From: Gammaproteobacteria bacterium
Lineage (GTDB): Bacteria > Pseudomonadota > Gammaproteobacteria > RBG-16-57-12
Reading direction: 5' to 3'
Assembly: GCA_022712945.1 (NCBI GenBank)
Contig: JAFLJP010000057.1
Coordinates: forward strand, 35,449-99,448
DNA length: 64,000 nucleotides
Positions 2,393-61,947 of the stretch are shown in pieces. Position 1 is the first letter of the stretch; each line of letters starts with the position of its first letter. The position numbers and the translations under genes were made by a program. The notes beneath the pieces are model-generated. The model searched no databases, was not told the origin of the DNA, and was given only the letters and a program-made list of their open reading frames with translations.

Positions 2393-2432
2393 GGTCTGTT
2401 TGGAAACCTTTTTGGCTGGTGTGACAAAATCA

Positions 2433-2469
2433 ACAGAACAACTGATCCGTCAATATAAAGTGGTTGATG
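2433..2469. repeat. 37-bp repeat R (acagaacaacYgatccgtcaatataaagtggttgatg), copy 1, abutting the IS256-type end
   Basis: A near-identical copy lies at 24841-24877. Both copies sit 5-25 bp from a 'gcctgtccgagaatag' IS terminus. Confidence 0.6.
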
Positions 2470-2474
2470 CGCTA

Positions 2475-3045
2475 GAAGCCTGTCCGAGAATAGATAGGCC
2501 TACTGCGAAAGCGTGTTTTTTGCTCATTTTCCCGCCAAATTTTTAGACTGTAAGTCATTCTGTGTAACGGCCGGTTTTAAATCACTGAGGGTTCTATTCT
2601 CCGCAGCTTGCTGCGGGGTAGTTTATTGTAGTCCGTCAAACGCTCTTCAAACTCAATGATAAAACGATTCAGTGCGGGTTTCCAATTCCTAATTGGCATT
2701 GTCCATTTTTTAGCCGCCGCTTGTGTCGCCAAGTAGATCACTTTTTTGGCTGAGTCATCCGTCGGAAACAGTTTCCGTTTTTTAATCGCTTTGCGAATAA
2801 CACTGTTCAGCGATTCAATGGCGTTGGTGGTGTAGATGACTTTACGAATATCATCAGGATAGTTGAACAAGGTGTTGAAGTTATGCCAATGATTTCGCCA
2901 TGAACGGCTGATCTGCGGGTATTTGTCATCCCAGCGCTCGGCAAATTGTTCGAGTGCTAACAGGGCTTCTTCTTTAGTCACTGACTGATAAATTTTCTTC
3001 AGCTCAGCTGCCACAGTCTTAATAGTCTTTCCATGGCACATACTT
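2475..3045 (-). mobile_element. Truncated IS256-family element: terminal repeat plus transposase 3' fragment
   Basis: The terminus 'agcctgtccgagaatagataggcctactgcgaaagcgtgttttttgctcattttcccgcc' is the reverse complement of the right end of the 24901-25067 element. It is followed by a transposase C-terminal fragment. The N-terminal ~250 codons are missing. Confidence 0.75.
2577..3041 (-). pseudogene. IS256/mutator-family transposase, C-terminal 154-aa fragment
   Basis: The translation (YTTNAIESLNSVIRKAIKKRKLFPTDDSAKKVIYLATQAAAKKWTMPIRNWKPALNRF) matches the conserved C-terminal block of IS256 transposases. Full-length proteins are about 400 aa. Confidence 0.8.
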
Positions 3046-3290
3046 CATCGTGTTACGCACCATGTGAATGATACAGAACTGTATTTGGGCCTGTGGATAT
3101 ACGGCATGCTGGGGCTAATGATAGGCAATTACACAGATTTCAGTACAGTCTCAGCCAGAGTTCGCTACTCTATTTAGAGCTCGTACATAAGTACGCATTT
3201 ATTTTTTTATTGGAGCGGTTTTATTGTTGACAACGGGGGAGTCCACATAAGTTACAAACTATCTTTCGTGCAAAGGTCTCAATACAACCT

Positions 3291-3388
3291 AGGAGGCTGT
3301 CCGAGAATAGAGGTTGTAGCGAGAGAGTGTGATTTTTAGTTCATTTTTTCGATAATTTGAGGCGAATGGTTGTTCTCTTTAACGAAAA
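3291..3388 (+). mobile_element. Solo IS256-type left-end fragment
   Basis: 'taggaggctgtccgagaatagaggttgtagcgagagagtgtgatttttagttcattttttcgataatttgaggcgaatggttgttctctttaacgaaaa' is about 95% identical to 24901-25000 and to 61731-61808. No adjacent transposase ORF. Confidence 0.7.
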
Positions 3389-3575
3389 CAGGATTTCTGC
3401 TGATCTCTCTGGGTGCCCTGTTTTCCATTGCCTCGGCACTTTATTCAGCGCGAGCTGATACTACTTAAAAAGGCGAAAAGAATTTTAAAGGTGAGTTGGA
3501 GAGAGAGCTTTCCCGCCTGCTGCCACACCAACACCCTGACATGAAAGATACATCCTCAAAAGGGGGATCTATGCA

Positions 3576-6035
3576 ATGAATGATGTTAACGAAACAGCTG
3601 ATAAAACGACCAGCAACCAGGGACTCTCCAGCGATGAGGCAGCGCGTCGTCTAACACAATATGGCCCCAATGCTCTGGAAGATAAGCAGGTTTCTGTTCT
3701 AAGACGCCTGCTCGGTTATTTCTGGGGACCTATTCCGTGGATGATTGAAATCGCGGCGATACTCTCTGCGCTGGTGCAGCACTGGGCCGATTTCTGGATC
3801 ATTATCACACTGCTGATCTTTAATGCAGCAGTGGGTTTCTGGCAAGAGTACACCGCTGGTAATGCGGTGGCCGCATTGATGAAGCAGCTGGCGATGAGGG
3901 CGCGTGTACGGCGCGATAAACAGTGGCAAGAGATCGATGCACAGAGACTGGTGCCGGGCGATATCGTGCGCATTCGCCTCGGCGATGTCATTCCCGCTGA
4001 TGTTAAATTGATAGAGGGTGATTATCTGAGCGTGGATCAGTCGGCACTCACCGGCGAATCACTGCCCACCACCAAGCGCACAGGCGATGATGCCTTTTCG
4101 GGAACGGTAGTCAAACAAGGCGAGGTCGTTGCACAAGTGATGGCAACAGGGGCCAATACCCGTTTTGGTAAAACAGCCAGCCTAGTGCAGCAGGCAAAAA
4201 CCGTCTCTCACTTTCAGAAGGCGGTTCTCTCCATCGGTGATTACCTGATCTACGTCAGCCTAGCACTGGTGGCCATCCTGATTATCGTTGGCTTACACCG
4301 GGGTTCCGACTGGCTGGAGCTGGTGCAATTTGCACTGATCCTTACCGTTGCCTCCATTCCCGTTGCCATGCCGGCGGTGCTCTCCATGACCATGGCGATG
4401 GGGGCCATGGCGCTGTCGAAACGCAAGGCGATCGTTACCCGTCTGGAGTCGATCGAAGAGATGGCCAGCATGGATGTTTTATGCTCGGATAAAACAGGTA
4501 CCTTGACGCAAAATCGCCTGACATTAGGTGAGATCGAAATTTTTCATGCCAAGGATGAGCAGGAGGTCTTGTTAGCGGCGGCACAAGCCTCGCGTGAAGA
4601 GGACAGGGATGCCATCGATGATGCCGTGCTGGAAGGACTGAAAGATAAAAGTCAGCTCACGGCCTTTCGCCAAACCGATTTCATCCCCTTTGACCCCGTA
4701 CACAAGCGCACGGAAGCCACCTTACAGGATGCCAGCGGCAGCACCTTTCAAACCGTCAAAGGCGCACCGCAGGTTGTTATGGAAATGGCGGGACTTGAGG
4801 GGGAGGGGCTGACACGCGCCCAGCAAATCATCGATGACTTCGCGCAGCAGGGCTATCGCGCCCTCGGGGTTGCGCACCGGGAAAGTGGCTCCGCCAGTTG
4901 GACCTTTCTTGGCATTCTATCTCTGTTTGATCCACCACGCGAAGACTCTGCGACAACCATTGCCGAGACACGCGCCTACGGCGTTAGCATGAAAATGGTG
5001 ACGGGCGACAACTTGTCTATCGCCAAACAGATTGCCACAAAATTGGGGTTGGGCAGCAATATTTTGCGTGCTGATGCCTTGCCCAGCGGAAACAGTGGCC
5101 TAGATCATCGAGAGAGCATAAAGGCGGTAGAGGGCGCGGATGGCTTTGCCGAGGTCTTTCCCGAGCATAAATTCGAAATTGTTAAAATCCTGCAAAATCG
5201 CAATCACATTACCGGCATGACCGGCGACGGCGTCAACGATGCCCCAGCTTTAAAGCAGGCCGACGTGGGGATCGCCGTCAGTGGCGCAACCGATGCCGCA
5301 CGCGCCGCCGCAGATCTAGTACTGACCGGGCCGGGGCTATCAGTGATCACCCATGCCATCGAGGAGGCACGACGCATTTTCGAGCGTATGAATGCCTACG
5401 CTATTTACCGCATCAGCGAAACCATTCGCATCATGTTCTTCGTGGTGCTGGCGATGATTTTTTTCGACTTCTATCCCATCACCGCAATCATGATCATCCT
5501 GCTCGCCTTCTTCAACGACCTGCCCATCATGACCATCGCGTACGATCGCACCGGACTGGAGAAAGGCCCGGTGAGATGGAACATGCGCCAAGTCATTACC
5601 GTGGCCACCGTCATGGGTATCGTCGGCGTGGTGGGCAGCTTTGGTATGTTGCTGATTGCTATGGACTGGCTGCACCTGGACGTGGCGCAAATTCAGACCT
5701 ATGTATTCCTGAAAATGGCCATTGCCGGGCACCTGGTGTTGTTCGTTGCACGAACCAAAGGGCATTTCTGGGAGCGTCCCTGGCCCGCCCCGATCATGAT
5801 CTGGTCTGCGCTAATCACCAAACTGGCCGCAACACTGTTGGCGGCCTACGGCTTCGGACTCATCACCCCCATTACCTGGCCAGAAATCGCACTCATCTGG
5901 AGTTATTCGTTCGCCTCCGCCTTGCTCACCGACTGGGTCAAGGTTCAGGTCTATCGCCACATGTCACAGGAGGCACCTCGCCATCGTGGTTTTCTGGCGC
6001 GGCTGAAAAAATCCCTGCATGTTTTTGGACGTTAG
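3576..6035 (+). CDS. P-type ATPase, type IIIA (plasma-membrane H+-ATPase family)
   Basis: 819 aa with DKTGTLT, TGD and [10 protein letters not shown] motifs. The N-terminus resembles plant and fungal PMA/AHA proton pumps (GLSSDEAARRLTQYGPNALEDKQVSVLRRLLGYFWGPIPWMIEIAAI). This is not the MgtA or Kdp signature. Confidence 0.85.
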   Translation: MNDVNETADKTTSNQGLSSDEAARRLTQYGPNALEDKQVSVLRRLLGYFWGPIPWMIEIAAILSALVQHWADFWIIITLLIFNAAVGFWQEYTAGNAVAALMKQLAMRARVRRDKQWQEIDAQRLVPGDIVRIRLGDVIPADVKLIEGDYLSVDQSALTGESLPTTKRTGDDAFSGTVVKQGEVVAQVMATGANTRFGKTASLVQQAKTVSHFQKAVLSIGDYLIYVSLALVAILIIVGLHRGSDWLELVQFALILTVASIPVAMPAVLSMTMAMGAMALSKRKAIVTRLESIEEMASMDVLCSDKTGTLTQNRLTLGEIEIFHAKDEQEVLLAAAQASREEDRDAIDDAVLEGLKDKSQLTAFRQTDFIPFDPVHKRTEATLQDASGSTFQTVKGAPQVVMEMAGLEGEGLTRAQQIIDDFAQQGYRALGVAHRESGSASWTFLGILSLFDPPREDSATTIAETRAYGVSMKMVTGDNLSIAKQIATKLGLGSNILRADALPSGNSGLDHRESIKAVEGADGFAEVFPEHKFEIVKILQNRNHITGMTGDGVNDAPALKQADVGIAVSGATDAARAAADLVLTGPGLSVITHAIEEARRIFERMNAYAIYRISETIRIMFFVVLAMIFFDFYPITAIMIILLAFFNDLPIMTIAYDRTGLEKGPVRWNMRQVITVATVMGIVGVVGSFGMLLIAMDWLHLDVAQIQTYVFLKMAIAGHLVLFVARTKGHFWERPWPAPIMIWSALITKLAATLLAAYGFGLITPITWPEIALIWSYSFASALLTDWVKVQVYRHMSQEAPRHRGFLARLKKSLHVFGR

Positions 6036-6193
6036 GGATGTAGAAGAAGTTAACGTACCGTTATTACGCCGAATTGTTGTTCACCCTATCTAGGCCGGTA
6101 TTGGGCGCATAGTGAGCTACGCAACGAATACCGGCCTAGAGAGGGTGGGCGAAAAGAGAAGTAAGCGCGGTATTTTAATAAATTCTACATCCC
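6036..6193. mobile_element. MITE1 copy (158 bp). TIR is gggatgtagaa...ttctacatccc, 3-bp TSD is TTA, with an internal 13-bp palindrome
   Basis: The element is about 95% identical to 11083-11241. The target-site duplication TTA lies at 6032-6034 and 6194-6196. The ATPase stop codon TAG (6033-6035) straddles the TSD and element boundary. Confidence 0.85.
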
Positions 6194-6869
6194 TTAACAA
6201 TGAGAAGTTCAACTGTGACTACAACGCATTCCGCATGGAAACCTTTGAAAATACGACAGACCCTCTTGCTCATCGTACGGTCATTTTTTATCGCGTTCCC
6301 CGCCATGGCAACTGAGAATGTATCAATGCCCGTAACGGGGAAGCTCACGCTCTCCGGCATTGTCCAACTTGGTCACCCTGTGGGCCGGCCTTTCATGACA
6401 ATCATTCAGTCGTTGTCACCGCAGTGAAATGTTTCTCCAAAAACATCCATTTCAAGGCAACGAATATTTGGTAGGCTCAAGTCCGAGGCCTGAATCCCAT
6501 TCACAGTCGAATGCTGTATAGACTCAGCAGCAACGCCCTGGGAGGCTATGAATAGGTCTGGTTGGGCTTAATCAGAGTTTCTTTGAGTAATGCTCAATAA
6601 GCCTGTCCGCAAGGTCAGAAGATCATTGGTGGTGGTGATTTTGTGAGGTAGTATGTGCATAGGTCTTGTCTGTATCACCGATTGGGCACGGGTTTGTTTG
6701 GTCGCTAACCATTGTACAGCCAAGGTTTTTTGCGTTTTAGATATTTAAATCGGCTTCTTTGATGAGGCTGTTCTAAACTATTCAAGTTACGGTGTGGATG
6801 TGCGATAACCTCCTTCCACAGCATGCCCTGTAAATGGGTGGTAAAATGCCACCGTTGATGCCGACATAG

Positions 6870-11070: not shown

Positions 11071-11082
11071 TTTTTCAGATTA

Positions 11083-11241
11083 GGGATGTAGAAGAAGTTA
11101 AAGTACCGTTATTACGCCGAATTTTTGTTCACCCTATCTAGGCCGGTATTGGGCGCATAGTGAGCTACGCAACGAATACCGGCCTAGATAGGGTGGGCGA
11201 AAAGACAAGTAAGAGCGGTATTTTAATAAATTCTACATCCC
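11083..11241. mobile_element. MITE1 copy (159 bp), TSD TTA
   Basis: Same TIRs and internal sequence as 6036-6193. TTA lies at 11080-11082 and 11242-11244. The element fills the 177-bp gap between the upstream gene's stop (11248) and the downstream gene's start (11070). Confidence 0.85.
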
Positions 11242-11247
11242 TTAGGC

Positions 11248-12364: not shown

Positions 12365-12392
12365 AACGGTTTGTTAACTCTTTGAGCCTAAA

Positions 12393-12550
12393 GGAAGCTC
12401 TGAATAAGCGGGGTTAGAATTAGGCTGAGCGGGAATTGTTCTCATTTGTTTCGAAATGCGCAGTAATAGTCGCTCTATTGGAGCAATTTTCGGGACAAAT
12501 GAGGGCGATTTCAGCCAGTATAAAATAATCATGACTTGTTCAGAGCTTCC
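12393..12550. mobile_element. MITE2 copy (158 bp). TIR is ggaagctctgaataag...cttgttcagagcttcc, 4-bp TSD is TAAA
   Basis: TAAA lies at 12389-12392 and 12551-12554. The element is about 90% identical, inverted, to 15104-15261. The stop codon (TAG, minus strand) of the downstream ORF overlaps the last base plus the TSD. Confidence 0.85.
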
Positions 12551-13074
12551 TAAAGGGTAATGTTGATCTGCTGTTCGTCATCGTTGATCCACAGCTCACC
12601 ATCCTGAAGTGTACATTGCAGCGACATAGTACGTTTTACCAATGAGCTGAGATTGTCAACATTGGCTTGGTCTAGATGTTTGATGGTGAGGTTGTCAAAG
12701 CGCGCCAGTGTGCTCTGTATCTGTTTCAACCAAGGGGCTGTGGCGCGGGGCTGGTAGGTGTAGATAATCACCTGTTTTGCGCGGTGACAAGCGTGGCGAA
12801 TGCGCTTCTCATCGGGCTGGCCCAGATCAATCCACAGCAAAATTTCATCAATATCACTCTTTTTCCACAGTGCCGGTTCATCTTGAGATGAAAGCCCTTT
12901 GCCGAATTGAAGCGCTGGATCGGCATTAAGGATAAAAGCGAGCAGTCGCACCATCATCCGCTGTTCACTCTCTGATGGGTGACAGGCGATAGTGAGCGGG
13001 TGCTGCGCATAGTAGTTGCGATCCATATCAGTGATATTGATATCCGCTTTATAAATAGTCGAGCTGTTGGCCAT
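12550..13074 (-). CDS. yaeQ: YaeQ family protein
   Basis: The N-terminus (MANSSTIYKADINITDMDRNYYAQHPLTIACHPSESEQRMMVRLLAF) closely matches E. coli YaeQ. Confidence 0.85.
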   Translation of the reverse strand: MANSSTIYKADINITDMDRNYYAQHPLTIACHPSESEQRMMVRLLAFILNADPALQFGKGLSSQDEPALWKKSDIDEILLWIDLGQPDEKRIRHACHRAKQVIIYTYQPRATAPWLKQIQSTLARFDNLTIKHLDQANVDNLSSLVKRTMSLQCTLQDGELWINDDEQQINITL

Positions 13075-15090: not shown

Positions 15091-15103
15091 CGCGTTATCT
15101 TAA

Positions 15104-15261
15104 GAAAGCTCTGAATAAGTCATGATTATTTTAGGCTGGCTGAAATCGCCCTCATTTATCCCGAAAATTGCACCAATAGAGCGACTATTACTGCACATTT
15201 CGAAACAAATGAGAACAATTTCCTCTCAGCCTAAATTTAACCAGACTTATTCAGAGCTTCC
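15104..15261. mobile_element. MITE2 copy (158 bp), inverted orientation, TSD TTAA
   Basis: TTAA lies at 15100-15103 and 15262-15265. The stop codon of the upstream gene at 15262-15264 lies inside the TSD. The element ends 14 bp before the arfB ATG. Confidence 0.85.
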
Positions 15262-17316
15262 TTAACAACGAAAACGTCTGACTGCCTGAATAAATGCACG
15301 CGGCTCCCCCGGTTTCTGCTGCGTGGTATAGCGTAGTTGAATGTAGTGATTAAAGAGTGACTTTATCTCTTGGCGCTGTTTGGGTAGTTTGAACATCGCC
15401 TGCTGACAGCGCTGTTTTGGCCCGATCCAGGGGGCGTTATCCACTCCGCATTTGGCGAGCTGATGGCAGAGGGTTTGGTAGGCTTGTTGCAGTGGGTCCT
15501 GCACTCTCTGCCGTTGGTATAACAGGTAGAGTGATAGCAGCGCTAAAAAGCCCAGTATGATAAGCGTCATAAGGCCCACAAGGGTAGATATGTTCAGCTC
15601 ACCCATGCCCAACCGTTCAAACAGCTGTTGCTGTTTTTTCTGATTAAAACCGACCACCCACTGATTCCATTGGTGGTTGGCAGCATCCCAACTGCGCAGG
15701 GTTTGTAACCAGGCGCGAGCCATCCAGCGGGTATCGGGGTTGAACAGCGCATCGTTACGGGTTTCACTAAAGCGGTACTGATCCTCAAAGGCTTCGATGC
15801 GATCGGGTGCGATGGCGCGGGTGGGGTCAACCCGTACCCAACCCTCACCTTGCAACCACACTTCTGCCCATGCGTGAGCATCGGACTGGCGCACCAGCAG
15901 GTAGTCACCCAGCTCATTGTATTCACCACCTTGGTAACCGGTCACAACCCGAGCAGGAATCCCGGCCGCCCGCATCAGGGTGACAAATGCAGCAGCGTAG
16001 TGCTCACAAAAGCCTTTTTTTGCCTCAAACAGAAACTGGTCGATGGGATCGTCACTCTCCAATCGTGGTGGTGTTCGGGAGTAGTAGAAGGGTTGCTGGC
16101 GAAAATAGTCTAGCGCCAGGGAGACCCGCCCCCGGTCACTGGCAGCCTGTTGTCGCCACTGTTGGGCAAGTGCACGGGTTTGCGGATTGCGATGACTGGG
16201 CAGCTGAATTGCCCGTTCGTACTCCTGCATCAGCAGTTGATCGTTCCGGTAGTTGAGTGCAGAGCGGGTGGTGTAGCGGTACACCTCATTAACGCTCTGC
16301 TCACTCAGTAGCAGGAACTCTCTGCGCAATACGCTGTTATCCGGTTGTTCGGTGATAAGGTCCAGCGCAAACAGCCAGCGTCGGTGGTGTGGTTGCAGGG
16401 TCACGGTGTATTCAATCGGCTCACTGAGTGGGGCGACCTCGGGGGCCGCCAGACTATTGAGCAGGTCATTTTTGTTCAGTGCACTCCAGCGGCGGCCATC
16501 GGTTTGCCAAAGCACCGGGCCACGCCAGTAGAGCTGCTCGGCAGCGGGTATTTCACCGCTAAAGGTGACACGAAAGGCCACCTTGTCGGAATCGGCCAGA
16601 TGGCTGATATCACCAATACTCATCTCATCACTAAGGCCGGTTTTACCCGCGCTGCTGCTATTGGGCAGTGCCCACAGCGGCCCCGGTATGCGAGGCACCA
16701 GGATAAACAATATCAGCATCAACGGCAGGGCTTGCAGTAGCAGTGTGCTGGCACTTTTGAGGTATCGGCTCCGCTGCATCTCTCTGTTGTCATCGGGGTG
16801 GTTGAGCACCAGCAGTGCCGCAGTGAGCAGCACCACCACGGCGAGCAGATAGAGGCCGGATAAAATTGATTGGTCGTAAAGAAAGCCGCTGAGCACTAAA
16901 AAATAGCCGAGCAGTATGGTAATGGTGGCATCCCGCAGGGTGCGTAGTTCAAGCAGTTTAAGGCAGAGCATCAGCGTCAGTAGCGTGGTGCCGGCATCCA
17001 GACCATTCAGGGTATGGTATTGGAGATAGGTGCCGGATAGCAGCGCTGCCGCCAGCGTTAGCCTGAAAACGGTGTGGGGCAGCGACCACCTGTTCAGTTC
17101 GCTGAGCAGTCGCCAGCCCAATATTATCAGGCAGATCGTCACCACCCAGCCGGGCTGTCGCAACAGGTGGGGGATGAGGACCAGTAGCAGCGCACCGAGC
17201 AGCCAGATGATTCCGTTGCTCGGAGCCACCTGTTGCTCCTCCCGATAGTGGGCAGGTTTCTGTTTGCGCCACCAGATCATCCGTTTTTCCCGTACAGCGC
17301 CAGCGCACTCAGACAC
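15262..17316 (-). CDS. Transglutaminase-domain membrane protein (TgpA-like, DUF3488 plus transglutaminase core)
   Basis: 684 aa. The N-terminus has multiple TM helices. The transglutaminase core is GFCEHYAAAFVTLMRAAGIPARVVTGY...DAHAWAEVW. It is the third gene of a moxR-DUF58-tgpA arrangement. Confidence 0.8.
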   Translation of the reverse strand: MSECAGAVREKRMIWWRKQKPAHYREEQQVAPSNGIIWLLGALLLVLIPHLLRQPGWVVTICLIILGWRLLSELNRWSLPHTVFRLTLAAALLSGTYLQYHTLNGLDAGTTLLTLMLCLKLLELRTLRDATITILLGYFLVLSGFLYDQSILSGLYLLAVVVLLTAALLVLNHPDDNREMQRSRYLKSASTLLLQALPLMLILFILVPRIPGPLWALPNSSSAGKTGLSDEMSIGDISHLADSDKVAFRVTFSGEIPAAEQLYWRGPVLWQTDGRRWSALNKNDLLNSLAAPEVAPLSEPIEYTVTLQPHHRRWLFALDLITEQPDNSVLRREFLLLSEQSVNEVYRYTTRSALNYRNDQLLMQEYERAIQLPSHRNPQTRALAQQWRQQAASDRGRVSLALDYFRQQPFYYSRTPPRLESDDPIDQFLFEAKKGFCEHYAAAFVTLMRAAGIPARVVTGYQGGEYNELGDYLLVRQSDAHAWAEVWLQGEGWVRVDPTRAIAPDRIEAFEDQYRFSETRNDALFNPDTRWMARAWLQTLRSWDAANHQWNQWVVGFNQKKQQQLFERLGMGELNISTLVGLMTLIILGFLALLSLYLLYQRQRVQDPLQQAYQTLCHQLAKCGVDNAPWIGPKQRCQQAMFKLPKQRQEIKSLFNHYIQLRYTTQQKPGEPRAFIQAVRRFRC

Positions 17317-20616: not shown

Positions 20617-20651
20617 TTCGTCAAAACGATGCGTTTTAGTGAAAGGCTTTA

Positions 20652-20684
20652 GGGTGGGGGGAAAGACAAGTAAGAGCGGTATGC
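20652..20684. repeat. MITE1 internal fragment (about 33 bp)
   Basis: 'agggtggggggaaagacaagtaagagcggtat' matches the MITE1 interior ('agggtgggcgaaaagacaagtaagagcggtat'). It has no TIRs. Confidence 0.4.
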
Positions 20685-22574: not shown

Positions 22575-23519
22575 TTATTCGTGTAGCAGTCGCTGCACCT
22601 GGTGTGGATCGTTGAGGGTGCGGATGTTATCGAACAGCCGTTGGGCTTCGTGGTAGTGGCTTTTTAGATAGCGAAGCCACTGTTTAAGGCGTGAAACAAT
22701 GTGGCAGTCGGCCACCCCGGCAGTGATACCGTCAAGCAACATGGTCTCAATCAGTGGAATAACGCAAGCCCAGGTTACGCTGCTGTGGCTGGCTCCCATT
22801 TGAAACTGGCGGATCTGTTGCACCAGGCCTGGGTTGATGATCACCCCTCGACCGATCATCACATCATCACAGCCGCTGATTTCTCGGCAGCGCAGGTAAT
22901 CATCCAGCGAGTTGATATCCCCATTGGCGACCACTGGAATGGTCAGTGATGCGCGGATACGGGCGATCCACTGCCAGTCGGCAGGTGGGCGATAACCCTC
23001 TTTTTTGGTGCGTCCGTGTACCACGATGCTATCGGCCCCGCCCGCTTCAACCGCGTGGGCGTTCTCTAGCGTGAGGGAGGTGTCGTCATAACCGAGGCGG
23101 ATTTTTGCGCTGAAGGGGATATTGTCGGGAACAACCTCACGCACCGCCGCCACAATCTGCTGAACCCGCTTTGGCTCTTTGAGCAAAACAGCCCCGCCTG
23201 CTTTGCGGTTGACGAATTTGGAGGGACAGCCGAAGTTAATGTCGATGCCTTTCGCACCCATCTCGATAGCTCGTTGTGCATTGATGGCGACAATTTCTGG
23301 CACGCCACCGAGTAACTGTATGGTGACGGGTGTGCCTGCCGGGGTGCATCCGTCATTGAGTAGCTCCGGGCAGGTGCGACGAAAGACGCGGCGCGGCAAC
23401 AGCCGATCGGTGACACGGATAAATTCGCTGACACAGAGATCAAGCCCTCCGATATCGGTCAAAAACCGGCGCATCTGCTGGTCGACTACGCCTTGCATTG
23501 GGGCGAGCAGGATCTTCAT
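22575..23519 (-). CDS. dusC: tRNA-dihydrouridine synthase (DusC-like)
   Basis: The Dus TIM-barrel motifs are present (LAPMQGVVD..., INFGCPSKFVNRKAGGAVLL, VVHGRTKKEGYRPPADW, VVANGDI). Its length and lack of extensions fit DusC. Confidence 0.75.
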   Translation of the reverse strand: MKILLAPMQGVVDQQMRRFLTDIGGLDLCVSEFIRVTDRLLPRRVFRRTCPELLNDGCTPAGTPVTIQLLGGVPEIVAINAQRAIEMGAKGIDINFGCPSKFVNRKAGGAVLLKEPKRVQQIVAAVREVVPDNIPFSAKIRLGYDDTSLTLENAHAVEAGGADSIVVHGRTKKEGYRPPADWQWIARIRASLTIPVVANGDINSLDDYLRCREISGCDDVMIGRGVIINPGLVQQIRQFQMGASHSSVTWACVIPLIETMLLDGITAGVADCHIVSRLKQWLRYLKSHYHEAQRLFDNIRTLNDPHQVQRLLHE

Positions 23520-24697
23520 GCACTCAATTCAACTACACCGTCGCAGATCTGCAACGTTGATTCACCATTAAGTACCGAGAGCAGTGGTTTGCCCAGTAAC
23601 TCACCACGCCACCCTTGCAGCAGCGCTTGTTCATGATCGCCCATCACCAGGGCCTCAATCTCTTTGCGGTTCGCAAGTGATGCCATGGCAATACGGCTTT
23701 TTGCCGCTACCATCCGCACCACAGACATCAGTAGATCCGCCTGCGCCTCTTGGTCGACGGTCGGCGCACGTTTTCTGGGGAAGGAGGGGCACGCCTCTTT
23801 TTCCACCGCCTTCCCCTTGGCAACCAGTGCCAACAGCTGATCACCATGGTGACTAACCGTGCGTTCATTGAGCCCCCGAATACGGGCCAGGCGTGTCACA
23901 TCCGCTGGCCCATGGCGAGCCACATCCAGCATCACCTCATCGGCCAAAATCCACTTGCGTGGTCTGTTTTTTTCACGGGCTGTCTGCTCTCGCCAGGCGG
24001 CTACTTCACGTAAAATGGCCAACTGGGGTGGTTTGAGTCGATTGGCACCCCGCACTCGCTGCCAGAATTGATGGTCATCTTTCTGATAACGAGAGTCATC
24101 CGCTAGGGCGGCAAAGTCGTTTTCTAGCCAGCTGCTGCGCCCCAGTGAGTCCAGTTCATCCACCAGGCGATGGTAGAGCGGCAATAGATAGCGCACGTCA
24201 TCGGCGGCGTATTCCAGCTGAGCGTCATCCAGTGGGCGCAGTGTCCAGTCGGTGCGACTGTGTGATTTGTCCAACTCAACTTCCAATACTGCTTGTACTA
24301 AATTACCGTAACCAATCTGACTTCCATGCCCCAGCAACGCGGCGGCAATTTGGGTGTCAAACAGTGGCTTCGGTAATTTCCCGTAGGCATCAAAGAAGAG
24401 CTCCAGGTCTTGGCCTGCGGCGTGAAATACTTTGATGATTTGTTCATCGTAAAGCAGTTCCATTAGGGGGCTGAGATCTTCAATTGCTAGCGGGTCGACA
24501 CAGGCAATCACATCCTCAGTGGCCAGTTGCAGCAAGCAGAACTGCGAGTAGTAGTGCTTTTCGCGCATAAACTCGGTGTCTAATGCCACCACCGAAGCCC
24601 CTTTGAGCTGCTGGCATAATTGCTGAAGTGATTCTGCGCTATCTATATAGTGTGCCTGCATGGCAAGGTTATCCTCTCTGTTTCGGTTAATTCGCAC
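23516..24697 (-). CDS. rnd: Ribonuclease D
   Basis: Has a DEDDy 3'-5' exonuclease domain (VVALDTEFMREKHYYSQFCLLQL...YAADDVRYL) and an HRDC region. 393 aa. Confidence 0.9.
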   Translation of the reverse strand: MRINRNREDNLAMQAHYIDSAESLQQLCQQLKGASVVALDTEFMREKHYYSQFCLLQLATEDVIACVDPLAIEDLSPLMELLYDEQIIKVFHAAGQDLELFFDAYGKLPKPLFDTQIAAALLGHGSQIGYGNLVQAVLEVELDKSHSRTDWTLRPLDDAQLEYAADDVRYLLPLYHRLVDELDSLGRSSWLENDFAALADDSRYQKDDHQFWQRVRGANRLKPPQLAILREVAAWREQTAREKNRPRKWILADEVMLDVARHGPADVTRLARIRGLNERTVSHHGDQLLALVAKGKAVEKEACPSFPRKRAPTVDQEAQADLLMSVVRMVAAKSRIAMASLANRKEIEALVMGDHEQALLQGWRGELLGKPLLSVLNGESTLQICDGVVELSA

Positions 24698-24840
24698 ACT
24701 GCTAGTACAGCAACCACTTTATATTGGCGGAATGCCACAGGGTCGCCCGAAGAGTTGCTCTGTCTGCTTCCATGGCGGCGTTGTGCTTCTTGTGAAGGGA
24801 ACAACCATTACCTGCAAAGCACGCCTTGCCACGAAAACAG

Positions 24841-24877
24841 ACAGAACAACGGATCCGTCAATATAAAGTGGTTGATG
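24841..24877. repeat. 37-bp repeat R, copy 2
   Basis: Matches 2433-2469 at 36 of 37 positions. It lies 23 bp from the MITE-like IS derivative. Confidence 0.6.
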
Positions 24878-24900
24878 TACTAGTTTCAGTTAGCTACTTT

Positions 24901-25067
24901 TCTAGGAGCCTGTCCGAGAATAGAGGTCGTAGCGAGAGAGTGTGATTTTTAGTTCATTTTTTCGACAATTTGAGACGAATGGTTGTTCCCTTTAACGAAA
25001 ATTGGCGGGAAAATGAGCAAAAAACACGCTTTCGCAGTAGACCTATCTATTTTCGGACAGGCTCCTA
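24901..25067. mobile_element. MITE-like IS256-derived element (167 bp) with 22-bp perfect TIRs (ctaggagcctgtccgagaatag)
   Basis: The left 100 bp match the solo ends at 3291-3388 and 61731-61808. The right 65 bp match the IS end at 2475-2540 in reverse complement. No coding capacity. Confidence 0.8.
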
Positions 25068-25101
25068 GGTTACTATGACGCCATTATAACAGAGGCCGTG
25101 G

Positions 25102-28403: not shown

Positions 28404-29021
28404 ATGGTAAATAACAGCAATCAGAGTATATCCCTCGCCATAACGGGTGCCTCCGGCGTACTGTATGGCTTGCGTCTGCTGGAGTGCCTGATCCAGGCGG
28501 GTGAGCCGGTCTTGTTAATGATTTCCCAAGCAGCACAGGTGGTTATTGCCACCGAAACAGATCTTAAACTCACCTCTCGCCCGGCAGAGATTCAACAACA
28601 GCTGGGTGCCCGTTATGGTGCCAAAGAGGGGCAGCTTCAGGTGTTTGGGAAAACGCAGTGGATGGCATCCGTTGCCAGCGGATCGAATGCGCCACGGGCG
28701 ATGGTGGTCTGCCCTTGCTCTACTGGCACTCTCTCCGCTATTGCCACCGGTGCCAGTAATAATCTGATTGAACGGGCGGCTGATGTGATGCTCAAAGAGC
28801 AGAAGAAGCTGATTTTGGTTGTGCGAGAGATGCCACTCTCTGCCATCCATTTAGAGAATATGCTAAAGCTATCACGTCTGGGGTGTGTGATTATGCCAGC
28901 CAGTCCGGGCTTTTATCACCGGCCAACTGAAATCAATGGCTTGATTGACTTTGTGGTTGCTCGCATACTGGATCAACTGCATATTCAACAAAAACTGATG
29001 CCCCGCTGGAGTGATTCATAA
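28404..29021 (+). CDS. ubiX: Flavin prenyltransferase UbiX
   Basis: ISLAITGASGVLYGLRLLE ... MVVCPCSTGTLSAIATGASNNLIERAADVMLKE is the UbiX/Pad1 fold. Confidence 0.9.
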   Translation: MVNNSNQSISLAITGASGVLYGLRLLECLIQAGEPVLLMISQAAQVVIATETDLKLTSRPAEIQQQLGARYGAKEGQLQVFGKTQWMASVASGSNAPRAMVVCPCSTGTLSAIATGASNNLIERAADVMLKEQKKLILVVREMPLSAIHLENMLKLSRLGCVIMPASPGFYHRPTEINGLIDFVVARILDQLHIQQKLMPRWSDS

Positions 29022-29264
29022 TCCTGGATTCCCCAGTTGACCGCTTCATTTTGGTGCCAATGAGTTAAATATGGAAATAATAGACTTTGATTTATCTATT
29101 CACCTAGTGGATAAGTTACGCTACGGTGCGAATTGCACGCTTGCGAGGGCGCATGGCCGCGTTACAACGCCTTGGAATAGAACCGGCTATTCCGCGTTGT
29201 TGTGCCTTGCCCTGCACCCCCGCAAACGCACACTTCGCTCCGTCCAACTGAGGATTCCAGGATA

Positions 29265-32998: not shown

Positions 32999-33210
32999 GC
33001 ACCTTGAGTAGGGAGTTCATTAGTCTGTGGAGATAAACACGCCATAAAACAGCCGTTTGATCTTGATGGTACTATTATTGGTGCGTAAAACGCACCCTAC
33101 GTTTGGGTGATTGGATTTCATGCACCATAAAAGTGGGCTTTAGTGGCGATGCGCTGCTTTGTTTGAAGGTCATTGTCGAGCTGTTTGAGAGCTGAACACT
33201 GCTTGGCTTA

Positions 33211-33282
33211 GGGATGTAGAATTTATTAAAATACCGCTCGGACTTGTCTTTTTTCCCACTCTATCTAGACCGGTATTCGTTC
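33211..33282. mobile_element. MITE1 truncated copy (about 72 bp of one end)
   Basis: Starts with the TSD-like TTA (33208-33210) plus 'gggatgtagaatttattaaaataccgc...ctatctagaccggtattcg', then diverges ('ttcagagcttg'). Confidence 0.55.
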
Positions 33283-34342: not shown

Positions 34343-34368
34343 ATGATTATCTGTCTGAAAATTATTTA

Positions 34369-34527
34369 GGAACGAGCGCGGAATAACTTATGCAGTTATG
34401 ACGCAGAAATTTTTCTCCAGTTCAAACGATCTCAAGAGGCGCATAGCTGGCTTACGTAACGATTGAGATCGTTTGAACTGGGGTGAAAGAGCAAGTCAGA
34501 ATGTAGGCGTTATTTCGTGATCGTTCC
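34369..34527. mobile_element. MITE3 copy (159 bp). TIR is ggaacgagc...gatcgttcc, TSD is TTA, with an internal 15-bp palindrome
   Basis: About 93% identical to 42036-42194. TTA lies at 34366-34368 and 34528-34530. The internal perfect inverted repeat is ttcaaacgatctcaa / ttgagatcgtttgaa. It sits in the divergent promoter region, 27 bp from the apaG ATG. Confidence 0.85.
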
Positions 34528-34603
34528 TTAGGGAAACTTTGAGCAAACGGCTCAGAGCTACCCCAATTATAACCGAACACCATCCGAGGGGAAGGGGAGT
34601 TAA

Positions 34604-42020: not shown

Positions 42021-42220
42021 GAAAGTTCTGAATAAGGAACGAGCACGGAATAACTTATGCAATTATGACGTAGAAATTTTGCTCCCGTTCAAACCAACTC
42101 AAGAGGCGCATAGCTGGCCTACGTAACGATTGAGATCGTTTGAACTGGGGTAAAAGAGCAAGTCAGAATGTAGAAGTTATTTCGTGATCGTTCCTAAGTC
42201 ATGATTTATTCAGAGCTTCC
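42021..42220. mobile_element. Composite: a 38-bp MITE2 mini-variant (TSD ATAG) carrying a nested MITE3 (42036-42194, TSD TAA)
   Basis: 'gaaagttctgaataa | MITE3 | taagtcatgatttattcagagcttcc' is flanked by ATAG at 42017-42020 and 42221-42224. MITE3 duplicated the TAA of 'ctgaaTAAgtcatg', which is seen intact in MITE2 at 15104-15261. The ccoG stop TAG lies inside the ATAG TSD. Confidence 0.85.
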
Positions 42221-53506: not shown

Positions 53507-53525
53507 TTACTCTTTCTGGCTACTA

Positions 53526-53638
53526 AGGGATGTAGGATTTATTAAAATACCGCACTTACTTGTCTTTTTGCCCACCCTATCTAGATAGGGTGAACAACAA
53601 TTCGGCGTAATAACGGTACTTTAACTTCTTCCACATCC
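53526..53638. mobile_element. MITE1 short variant (113 bp, lacking the internal palindrome), TSD TAA
   Basis: TAA lies at 53523-53525 and 53639-53641. The TIRs are intact, and the central 'ggccggtatt...aataccggcc' segment is deleted. It sits 20 bp after the cytochrome c4 stop. Confidence 0.8.
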
Positions 53639-53714
53639 CTAAGGGCACACCGCCTACTGGCGGCGTGCCTTTTTTATGTGGGTTAATATTTAGTAGTAGG
53701 TAGTGGTGCCTTGC

Positions 53715-61639: not shown

Positions 61640-61730
61640 GATCCTAGAATCCTCAGATCGAAGTTAATTATTATCTACCGCCCGCTCATTATATACACAG
61701 ATTTCAACGAGCCACTGACAAAATTCATAA

Positions 61731-61808
61731 GGAGCTTGTCCGAGAATAGAGGTCGTAGCGAGAGAGTGTAATTTTTAGTTCATTTTTTCGACAATTTGAG
61801 GCGAATGG
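61731..61808 (+). mobile_element. Solo IS256-type left-end fragment (78 bp)
   Basis: 'ggagcttgtccgagaatagaggtcgtagcgagagagtgtaatttttagttcattttttcgacaatttgaggcgaatgg' matches 24903-24980 with 2 mismatches. Confidence 0.65.
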
Positions 61809-61947
61809 GCACCTTGAAAAAAGGTACTATTTTTAGAGGCGCGTTTATGTTGGCAGTACACCGGGAGAGGTTATTCCAGTATAGGTAATGGCGACAATAG
61901 GCTCTGCTTTTTCCTCGCCATTATCCCGTGCAAAATCCCCAAAGCAT

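Follow-up and report, generated by a model that had tools for sequence, protein, structure and literature searches.

Where does a short non-coding repeat come from that stands between rnd and mpl, and which transposase could have moved it? The question is raised by a 167-bp element, here called Y, in a 64,000-nt stretch of a Gammaproteobacteria bacterium (contig JAFLJP010000057.1, positions 35,449 to 99,448; the full stretch is referred to as the window). A preliminary description of this DNA took Y for a miniature inverted-repeat transposable element (MITE) formed de novo by internal deletion of an IS256-type insertion sequence (IS) located at 2475-3388 of the same window, the left end of which was kept over about 100 bp and the right end over about 65 bp. 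The analysis presented here leads to a different answer. We consider it probable that Y is an old, fixed MITE copy that has the tips and the insertion site of a large clade of the IS1182 family and is constrained to fold as a hairpin.

Y begins with CTAGGAGCCTGTCCGAGAATAGA and ends with TCTATTTTCGGACAGGCTCCTAG. Its existence and its length of 167 bp, CTA and TAG flanks included, stand as first described, while its position has to be moved one base to the right of 24901-25067 (Table 1). The terminal inverted repeats (TIRs), previously given as perfect over 22 bp, are in fact 23 bp long and perfect over a run of 16 bp; their one mismatch is G/A, at position 17. There are 5 occurrences of the 17-mer core of this repeat in the window, where 0.12 would be expected by chance. 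There is no open reading frame (ORF) of 60 or more amino acids inside Y, hence it was rightly called non-coding, and ORF and protein-domain calls uphold its location between rnd (23516-24697, - strand) on one side and a small gene for a membrane protein, then mpl, on the other. The window copy folds into a near full-length hairpin (-88.5 kcal/mol, z = -12.5), the better-folding strand being the + strand, which runs from the left arm (arm A) to the right arm (arm B). A promoter and terminator scan found neither promoter-like sites nor terminators within Y.

The tips of Y point to the IS1182 family. A 22-nt plasmid match to the Y tip led to a decayed transposase gene starting about 60 nt inside CTAGGAGGCTGTCCGAG, the sequence with which the decayed IS1182 element in locus L073 begins. 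The closest intact relative of this transposase, picked by protein similarity, belongs to ISMno38, an element annotated as IS1182-like, whose tips form a perfect 20-bp inverted repeat (CTAGGAGCCCGTCCGAGTAA) and, compared by eye, have 15 of 19 nt in common with those of the window Y. The tips of ISKpn6, which is also of the IS1182 family, are CTAGGAGCCTGCGCGG, and its bounding repeats read CTAGGAGCCTGCGCGGCAGA. We scanned metagenome contigs for the tip GGAG(G/C)C(C/T)GTCCGAG with, 50-78 nt further on, the coding motif W-(D/N)-x-D-Q, and obtained at least 120 loci with both; among the matches listed, cta precedes the tip in 118 of 120, and the complete elements are mostly 1.43-1.66 kb long and end in an inverted tip plus tag. 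The element in L158 (6990-8459, 1470 bp) carries at both ends the tip GGAGCCTGTCCGAGAAT, identical to that of the window Y in 17 of 17 nt. Its product of 444 amino acids reaches 374 bits on NF033551 (IS1182 family, cut-off 270) and contains DUF772 and DDE_Tnp_1.

Y has the trait expected of an IS1182 partner, namely GGAG(G/C)C(T/C)GTCCGAG tips with CTA/TAG flanks, and it is alike in this to IS1182 elements of the ISMno38 and ISKpn6 type (NF033551), in which such ends are flanked by CTA...TAG in nearly every copy. It is unlike them in being only 161 bp long without the flanks and in having no transposase gene. Moreover, the left and right ends of the IS in L158 are alike for about 26 bp only (by eye, in the one autonomous element inspected), whereas Y is complementary over its whole length. 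A tblastn search with the ISMno38 transposase against the collected loci and the window returned only C-terminal fragments near Y, in L040 and L072; as neither is bounded by Y arms, both were rejected as the parent of Y.

That Y is a family of its own became apparent from a scan of genome contigs, one genome per species, with a pattern made from the starts of both arms. It gave 64 loci, of which about 45 hold inverted end pairs, most of them 132-137 nt apart, as in the window. These loci stand in different flanking contexts in other genomes. The hosts include Mariprofundaceae and other Zetaproteobacteria, Nitrosomonas, Methylococcaceae, Methylococcales, Sedimenticola, Chromatiales, Thiotrichales and several unclassified Gammaproteobacteria; one contig each from metagenome-assembled genomes (MAGs) of Desulfocapsa and Polaribacter also carries Y, and a plasmid BLAST with the element and the arm consensus detected an unannotated copy on plasmid pMPC6-328K of Pseudomonas sp. 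MPC6. Several single pattern matches in Bacteroidota, Streptomyces and Lachnospiraceae have no arms, look like chance and were discarded, and viral contigs gave two tip matches only. No transposase gene was found inside or directly beside the Y copies in the 64 genome loci.

We aligned 34 full copies, those of the window and of the related contig L006 (see below) included. All are 164-169 bp long and their tips are nearly invariant, while identity to the window copy is 65-77% for most of them, with L054 (98%) and L006 (95%) as exceptions. CTA flanks 28 of the 34 copies on one side and TAG flanks 27 of the 34 on the other. There are also shorter (70-90 bp) and longer (224-307 bp) versions, the latter with small nested insertions, and many copies have lost an end or an internal stretch or are split by other elements. 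Y thus has several of the features that characterize a MITE: it is short and non-coding, bears TIRs, occupies many unrelated loci, and there are autonomous elements with matching ends (17 nt plus the flanks). No description of it was found in the literature searched; at gathering thresholds Rfam has no match in the window, and at permissive thresholds only sub-threshold microRNA-type hairpin matches fall on Y. We define here a family of hairpin MITEs with IS1182-type ends, hitherto undescribed in that literature and in Rfam, which extends over several proteobacterial classes and over vent, sediment and nitrifier lineages.

The same 34 copies allowed us to examine the hairpin, using 500 shuffles and controls with the pairing partners slid by 1-3 columns. 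The consensus structure has 61 pairs, 33 of which show compensatory double changes. Standard pairs make up 95.0% of the cells, as compared to 83.9% in shuffles and 41-49% with slid partners, and the covariation score is 0.371, as compared to 0.166 and 0.05-0.11, respectively; each of the two observed values was reached by 0 of 500 shuffles. In the inner helix (columns 37-71 with 102-136), compensatory changes are present in 26 of 32 pairs. Hardly any variation is seen in the terminal 20 bp, in the internal loop with GTAGCGA on one side and GCAGTAG on the other, or in parts of the centre (TTTGAGGCGAATAG, TTTAACGAAAAT). The mismatched cells are far from evenly divided. There are 249 G·T or T·G cells versus 33 A·C or C·A cells, and 22 columns with at least three cells of the G·T type versus 2 with at least three of the A·C type. 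A palindrome that decays neutrally, or whose arms convert each other in duplex DNA, should have both types in equal numbers; the G·T excess therefore argues for selection on a folded single strand. The A-to-B strand, on which the consensus structure was itself predicted, folds more stably than its complement in 34 of the 34 related copies; on average the gain is 19.3 kcal/mol when RNA parameters are used and 6.2 when DNA parameters are. This points to a single-strand structural constraint on Y, which might act on RNA or on single-stranded DNA.

How could such an element spread? We infer that Y is mobilised in trans by an IS1182 transposase, and the size of its target duplication and the role of its hairpin belong to the same proposal. 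A DDE transposase of the IS1182 family, supplied in trans, would recognise the tips of about 17-20 bp, GGAG(G/C)CTGTCCGAGAAT. Insertion at CTAG would then yield the CTA...TAG flanks by duplication of either TA or CTAG, and every insertion would restore CTAG at both ends, which would explain why other elements pile up beside Y copies. Between the tips, a hairpin of about 160 nt would be kept in one strand; it could aid transposition or persistence of Y, perhaps as single-stranded DNA during movement or replication, or it could act at the RNA level.

Several observations weigh against this proposal. Among the matches listed, no autonomous element is similar to Y beyond the terminal ~17 bp, and when their 90-nt IS1182 ends are aligned locally with arm A or arm B, even the best matches extend no further than about 17-28 nt. 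The 80-nt arms thus lack a counterpart in the sampled IS1182 elements, and Y may not derive from any of them by deletion. No IS1182 transposase was found in the window or directly beside any Y copy. Empty sites were likewise absent among the loci examined, so that mobility of Y is deduced from its many unrelated genomic contexts. Because CTAG is a palindrome, the sequence looks the same whether TA or CTAG was duplicated or the flanks belong to the repeat itself. As to the hairpin, the Y copies are related, and the counts of covariation and strand bias are in part inherited from common ancestors. Finally, the orientation of Y relative to neighbouring ORFs (rough ORF calls) is the same in 11 and opposite in 18 cases upstream, and the same in 13 and opposite in 15 downstream; with no bias there, a simple cis-acting role in mRNA is not favoured. 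One plausible view is that the sampled IS1182 elements are sources of transposase rather than demonstrated parents, and a parent with matching arms may exist outside the matches listed.

The IS256 parentage initially assigned to Y did have some basis, as both arms recur beside a remnant of an IS256-family transposase and the arm copy at 2472-2544 directly adjoins it. The ORF at 2577-3041 encodes the C-terminal part of such a transposase (PF00872, E = 7e-26); the remnant continues upstream in another frame to about 3105, and is thus frameshifted, and its 5' part is missing. What decides the matter is where the element ends. At 2545-2572 its terminus reads AGACTGTAAGTCATTCTGTGTAAC, with the inverted repeat AGACTGTAAGTCATTCTGTGTAACGGCC, and the partner of this repeat lies at 3124-3151. 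Both repeats of the intact homologue in L001 (GAGGCTGTA...GTGTAACTGC) align with those of the remnant, as does the right end of a second intact homologue, in L200, while the sequences outside the repeats are unrelated among the three. It follows that arm B at 2472-2544 is flanking DNA and not an end of the IS256-type element; the latter spans 2545-3152 and is itself a non-autonomous internal-deletion derivative that keeps both of its inverted repeats. On the other side, 136 unrelated bases separate its end at 3152 from the arm-A half copy at 3289. The stretch 2475-3388 does not constitute a single IS. Its two arm copies, at 2472 and 3289, share one orientation instead of being inverted, and therefore cannot be the two ends of one element.

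Further evidence goes the same way. The inverted repeats of the IS256-type element, (G)AGACTGTAA...CTGTGTAAC, differ from those of Y, and all that the two have in common is proximity, the remnant abutting a half copy of Y at 2545. The closest homologues of the IS256-type transposase (84% identity) were considered as the parent of Y and rejected, because their elements have different ends. No intact IS with both Y arms, such as the deletion model called for, was found among the closest IS256-type homologues or in the 64 genome loci; the tips match IS1182-family elements instead. IS256-family elements produce target duplications of 8-9 bp. Direct repeats of this size do not flank Y, either in the window or in L006. 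Together with the presence of Y in other bacterial classes, where thirty-one more copies of 164-169 bp are found, and at the orthologous site of a diverged lineage, this makes an origin by deletion of the IS256-type element scarcely credible. Judged by its ends and its distribution, Y appears to be unrelated to that element, and we regard the parentage as refuted, which for the purpose of annotation removes a false link between IS256 and a MITE. As for the remnant itself, it has no 8-9-bp duplication at its own flanks, and in comparison to L001 and L200 a GC-rich hairpin of 44 bp is inserted in it, after the stop codon and ahead of the right repeat.

If Y was not formed from its neighbour, how old is the window copy? 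The related hydrothermal-vent contig L006 (UOFP01000016.1) carries Y at the same site in the spacer between rnd and the membrane-protein gene, with 95% identity in Y and 88-92% in the surrounding DNA, which makes Y at least as conserved as its flanks at this place. The orthologous site is also occupied in L007, a contig with an L006-type Mpl; L007 and three further contigs with an identical membrane protein break inside Y, as repeats do in assemblies. Because the same copy stands at the orthologous site of the L006 lineage, which is about 8% diverged, the window copy is old, and presumably fixed. Hence Y was correctly assigned to the short, non-coding, TIR-bearing MITE type, but it did not arise de novo.

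In L006, Y occupies nearly the whole divergent promoter spacer of rnd and the membrane-protein gene, so both genes must be expressed through Y or from within it. Judging from the gene call in L006 (382 amino acids), rnd would begin 11 codons further downstream than the GTG from which the listed ORF of the window starts; the difference is 24664-24697. If the shorter start is taken, the element found upstream of rnd is X (described below) in the window, at a distance of about 38 nt, and Y in L006, at about 41 nt; in that case the promoters of rnd and of the membrane-protein and mpl genes must lie within X and Y or read through them. Y copies located in promoter regions may thus influence the expression of neighbouring genes.

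Two of the remaining explanations concern the enzyme. Elements of the IS630 family insert at CTAG and duplicate TA. The CTA...TAG flanks in about 80% of Y copies match this preference, and one may therefore ask whether Y is moved by a transposase of the IS630/Tc1-mariner type. The 4-bp palindromic targets reported for Pseudomonas elements are CTAG for ISPsy32 and GGCC for ISPsy36, the latter of the IS1182 family (PMC8027508). Still, the 17-nt tips of Y are identical to those of bona fide IS1182-family elements that have the same CTA/TAG flanks, and no IS630-type element with GGAG(G/C)CTGTCCGAG tips turned up, in work that included no search aimed at IS630 elements; we thus find mobilisation by an IS630-type enzyme quite improbable. 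Even less probable, in our opinion, is that Y is a host palindrome of the REP/BIME type (REP, repetitive extragenic palindrome) that owes its spread to a RAYT (Y1) transposase, or else a recombinase site such as an integron attC or a dif-like sequence. Y is intergenic and palindromic, favours one strand and conserves unpaired bases, which is reminiscent of the folding of the attC bottom strand. On the other hand, it has 20-bp terminal repeats with tips identical to those of a DDE-type IS, it forms no arrays, and no integrase or RAYT neighbours were seen in the loci examined, where neighbouring proteins were not scanned systematically. REP units are far shorter than the ~165 bp of Y. The REP/RAYT, attC-like and retron readings were consequently dropped on account of size, tips and context.

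The third explanation is about function rather than the enzyme, and holds that Y is mainly a structured RNA or single-stranded DNA element retained by its hosts, with the tips only as its means of spread. Quite a few of the results agree with it: the helices covary and the loops stay conserved, G·U is preferred over A·C and one strand is favoured throughout, the length is kept within a few bases though identity drops to about 65%, the copy between rnd and mpl is no less conserved than its surroundings, and in L006 Y fills nearly all of a divergent promoter region. What speaks against it is that Rfam offers nothing beyond weak generic hairpin matches, that Y contains no promoter-like site and shows no orientation bias relative to neighbouring ORFs, and that the many truncated, deleted and interrupted copies are as expected of parasitic DNA. 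Retention by the hosts as the main reason for the existence of Y thus seems unlikely, and it is in any case compatible with Y being a MITE. A related and somewhat bolder idea, to which we give a small but real chance, is that Y is a horizontally spreading structured nucleic acid of about 165 nt whose strand-specific hairpin is functional and takes it beyond selfish DNA. Such a nucleic acid might work as an RNA on transcripts nearby, or as the single-stranded DNA intermediate that an uncharacterised IS1182-type pathway of transposition requires, and the conserved GTAGCGA/GCAGTAG loop and the apical region would belong to such a function. An old MITE with IS1182-type ends, maintained as a hairpin, remains the explanation that we favour.

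Table 1. Positions in the window of Y, its partial copies and the adjoining elements
Feature	Position	Strand	Remarks
Y, full copy, including CTA and TAG flanks	24902-25068	+	nhmmer E = 3e-43, profile positions 1-166
Y proper, GGAG...CTCC	24905-25065	+	161 bp without flanks
Left terminal inverted repeat of Y, GGAGCCTGTCCGAGAATAGA	24905-24924	+	first 17 nt identical to tips of autonomous IS1182-family elements
Right terminal inverted repeat of Y, GGAGCCTGTCCGAAAATAGA	25046-25065	-	one mismatch relative to left repeat
Arm-A half (GTAGCGA) of asymmetric internal loop	24929-24935	+	nearly invariant columns; unpaired in consensus structure
Arm-B half (GCAGTAG) of asymmetric internal loop	25034-25040	+	partner of GTAGCGA; nearly invariant, unpaired in consensus structure
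Conserved central region and apical loop of Y (TTTGAGRCGAATRG ... TTTAACGAAAAT)	24969-25002	+	from family alignment, consensus structure and profile
Y half copy, arm B, profile positions 97-166	2472-2544	-	ends exactly at start of IS256-type remnant
Y half copy, arm A, profile positions 1-102	3289-3390	+	same orientation as half copy at 2472
Y truncated copy, arm A, profile positions 3-86	61728-61813	+	outer flank TAA instead of CTA
IS256-family element, internally deleted and frameshifted, ~608 bp	2545-3152	-	own inverted repeats at 2545-2572 and 3124-3151; not part of Y
X, second MITE-like element, 182 bp, unrelated to Y	24702-24883		30-bp terminal repeats (GTACAGCAACCACTTTATATTG...), CTA/TAG flanks

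Searching with the family profile (nhmmer), we found exactly four places in the window that match Y, one full copy and three partial ones; for the truncated arm-A copy the match to the profile covers 61730-61813, and for the arm-B half copy 2542-2472. The left ~100 nt of Y (arm A) are 95% identical to 3289-3388 and 79% identical to 61728-61827, in agreement with the left ends formerly noted near 3291 and 61731, and the right ~71 nt (arm B) are 94% identical to 2472-2542 in inverted orientation. The half copies on either side of the IS256-type remnant both break in the central loop of Y, at profile positions 97-102. In addition, a right-end fragment of X (2426-2475) abuts the arm-B half copy at 2475. 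The homology of the window to related contigs (L078 and L079, in the neighbourhood of an HDOD-domain gene) stops at about 2428, beyond which these contigs continue with a gene for a Tricorn-like protease, and the window with mobile-element debris and then a P-type ATPase gene. The region is therefore a synteny breakpoint filled with broken mobile elements, which pile up from 2426 to 3390.

At the rnd side of the full copy, the window has about 200 bp directly left of Y that L006 lacks, and most of this is X. X is inserted at the CTAG flanking Y and is missing from the orthologous L006 site; it is thus a true presence/absence polymorphism, and the only one at this site. Some 20-22 extra bases between X and Y (24884-24904; TTTCAGTTAGCTACTTTTC plus TAG) are missing from L006 as well. 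A simple insertion of X does not explain them; they could represent a footprint, or else what is left of another element.

Y copies in other genomes also have mobile elements as neighbours or guests. Y adjoins Y in L036, L054 and L070, and an IS1182-like end abuts Y in L072. The copy in L054 (3659-3825), a contig binned as Desulfocapsa sp. MC-01, is the one that is 98% identical to that of the window, and this contig contains also a 165-nt IS5-like MITE; this suggests that either a horizontal transfer took place recently, or the contig was mis-binned and stems from a relative of the organism to which the window belongs. A nested element, CGACAA(C/T)TGCTCC...GGAGCA(G/A)TTGTCGA, is repeatedly and precisely inserted within the GTAGCGA / GCAGTAG loop motifs of Y (L044 4190-4420, L049 4016-4340, L052 ~4474, L064 ~4817), which suggests a further element targeting this motif. 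In L016 (~1000-1100), a gene for an IS66-type transposase splits a Y copy near its centre, akin to the IS256-type remnant at 2545 of the window. The central loop of Y may thus be a preferred point of insertion.

The genome of the window is unusually rich in MITE-like repeats. Inverted copies of a 165-nt MITE-like element, 91% complementary, at 12391-12555 and 15099-15263 bracket about 2.5 kb with four ORFs; their terminal repeats, GGAAGCTCTGAATAAG, resemble IS5-type tips, and copies of this IS5-like MITE are present in L054, as mentioned, and in L027, where one directly abuts a Y copy. At least two more palindromic families of 160-175 nt can be recognised (6023-6196 / 11071-11244; 34368-34531 / 42035-42198; 33190-33281; 53523-53642; 20650-20682), and the family at 34368-34531 / 42035-42198 has a match in L042 as well, and a weak one in the centre of the Y profile. 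In comparison to L006, there is an insertion of about 250 bp with inverted ends (ATAATCCTGGATTCC... / ...GGATTCCAGGATAAT) at 29015-29264, between a flavoprotein-type gene and the next gene; this is likely another MITE insertion polymorphism.

By its tips and insertion site, the Y family is linked to the IS1182 family, which is poorly studied, and its strand-specific hairpin offers a handle on whether IS1182-type elements or their MITEs go through a stage as a folded single strand, or else work as RNAs. Among known systems, the nearest are ERIC/IRU of enterobacteria, Correia/NEMIS of Neisseria and RUP of Streptococcus pneumoniae, intergenic non-coding repeats of 100-170 bp with terminal inverted repeats. 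Correia and RUP insert at TA-containing sites, and the transcripts of ERIC, Correia and RUP fold as long hairpins and have orientation-dependent effects. Y is like them in being a hairpin MITE, but its sequence is unrelated to theirs. To our knowledge, each of these three families is restricted to one genus or family, whereas Y spans Zeta-, Beta- and Gammaproteobacteria as well as one MAG contig labelled Desulfocapsa. Its tips, moreover, point to IS1182 and not to IS630, and for Y a strand-specific covariation is documented over 34 copies.

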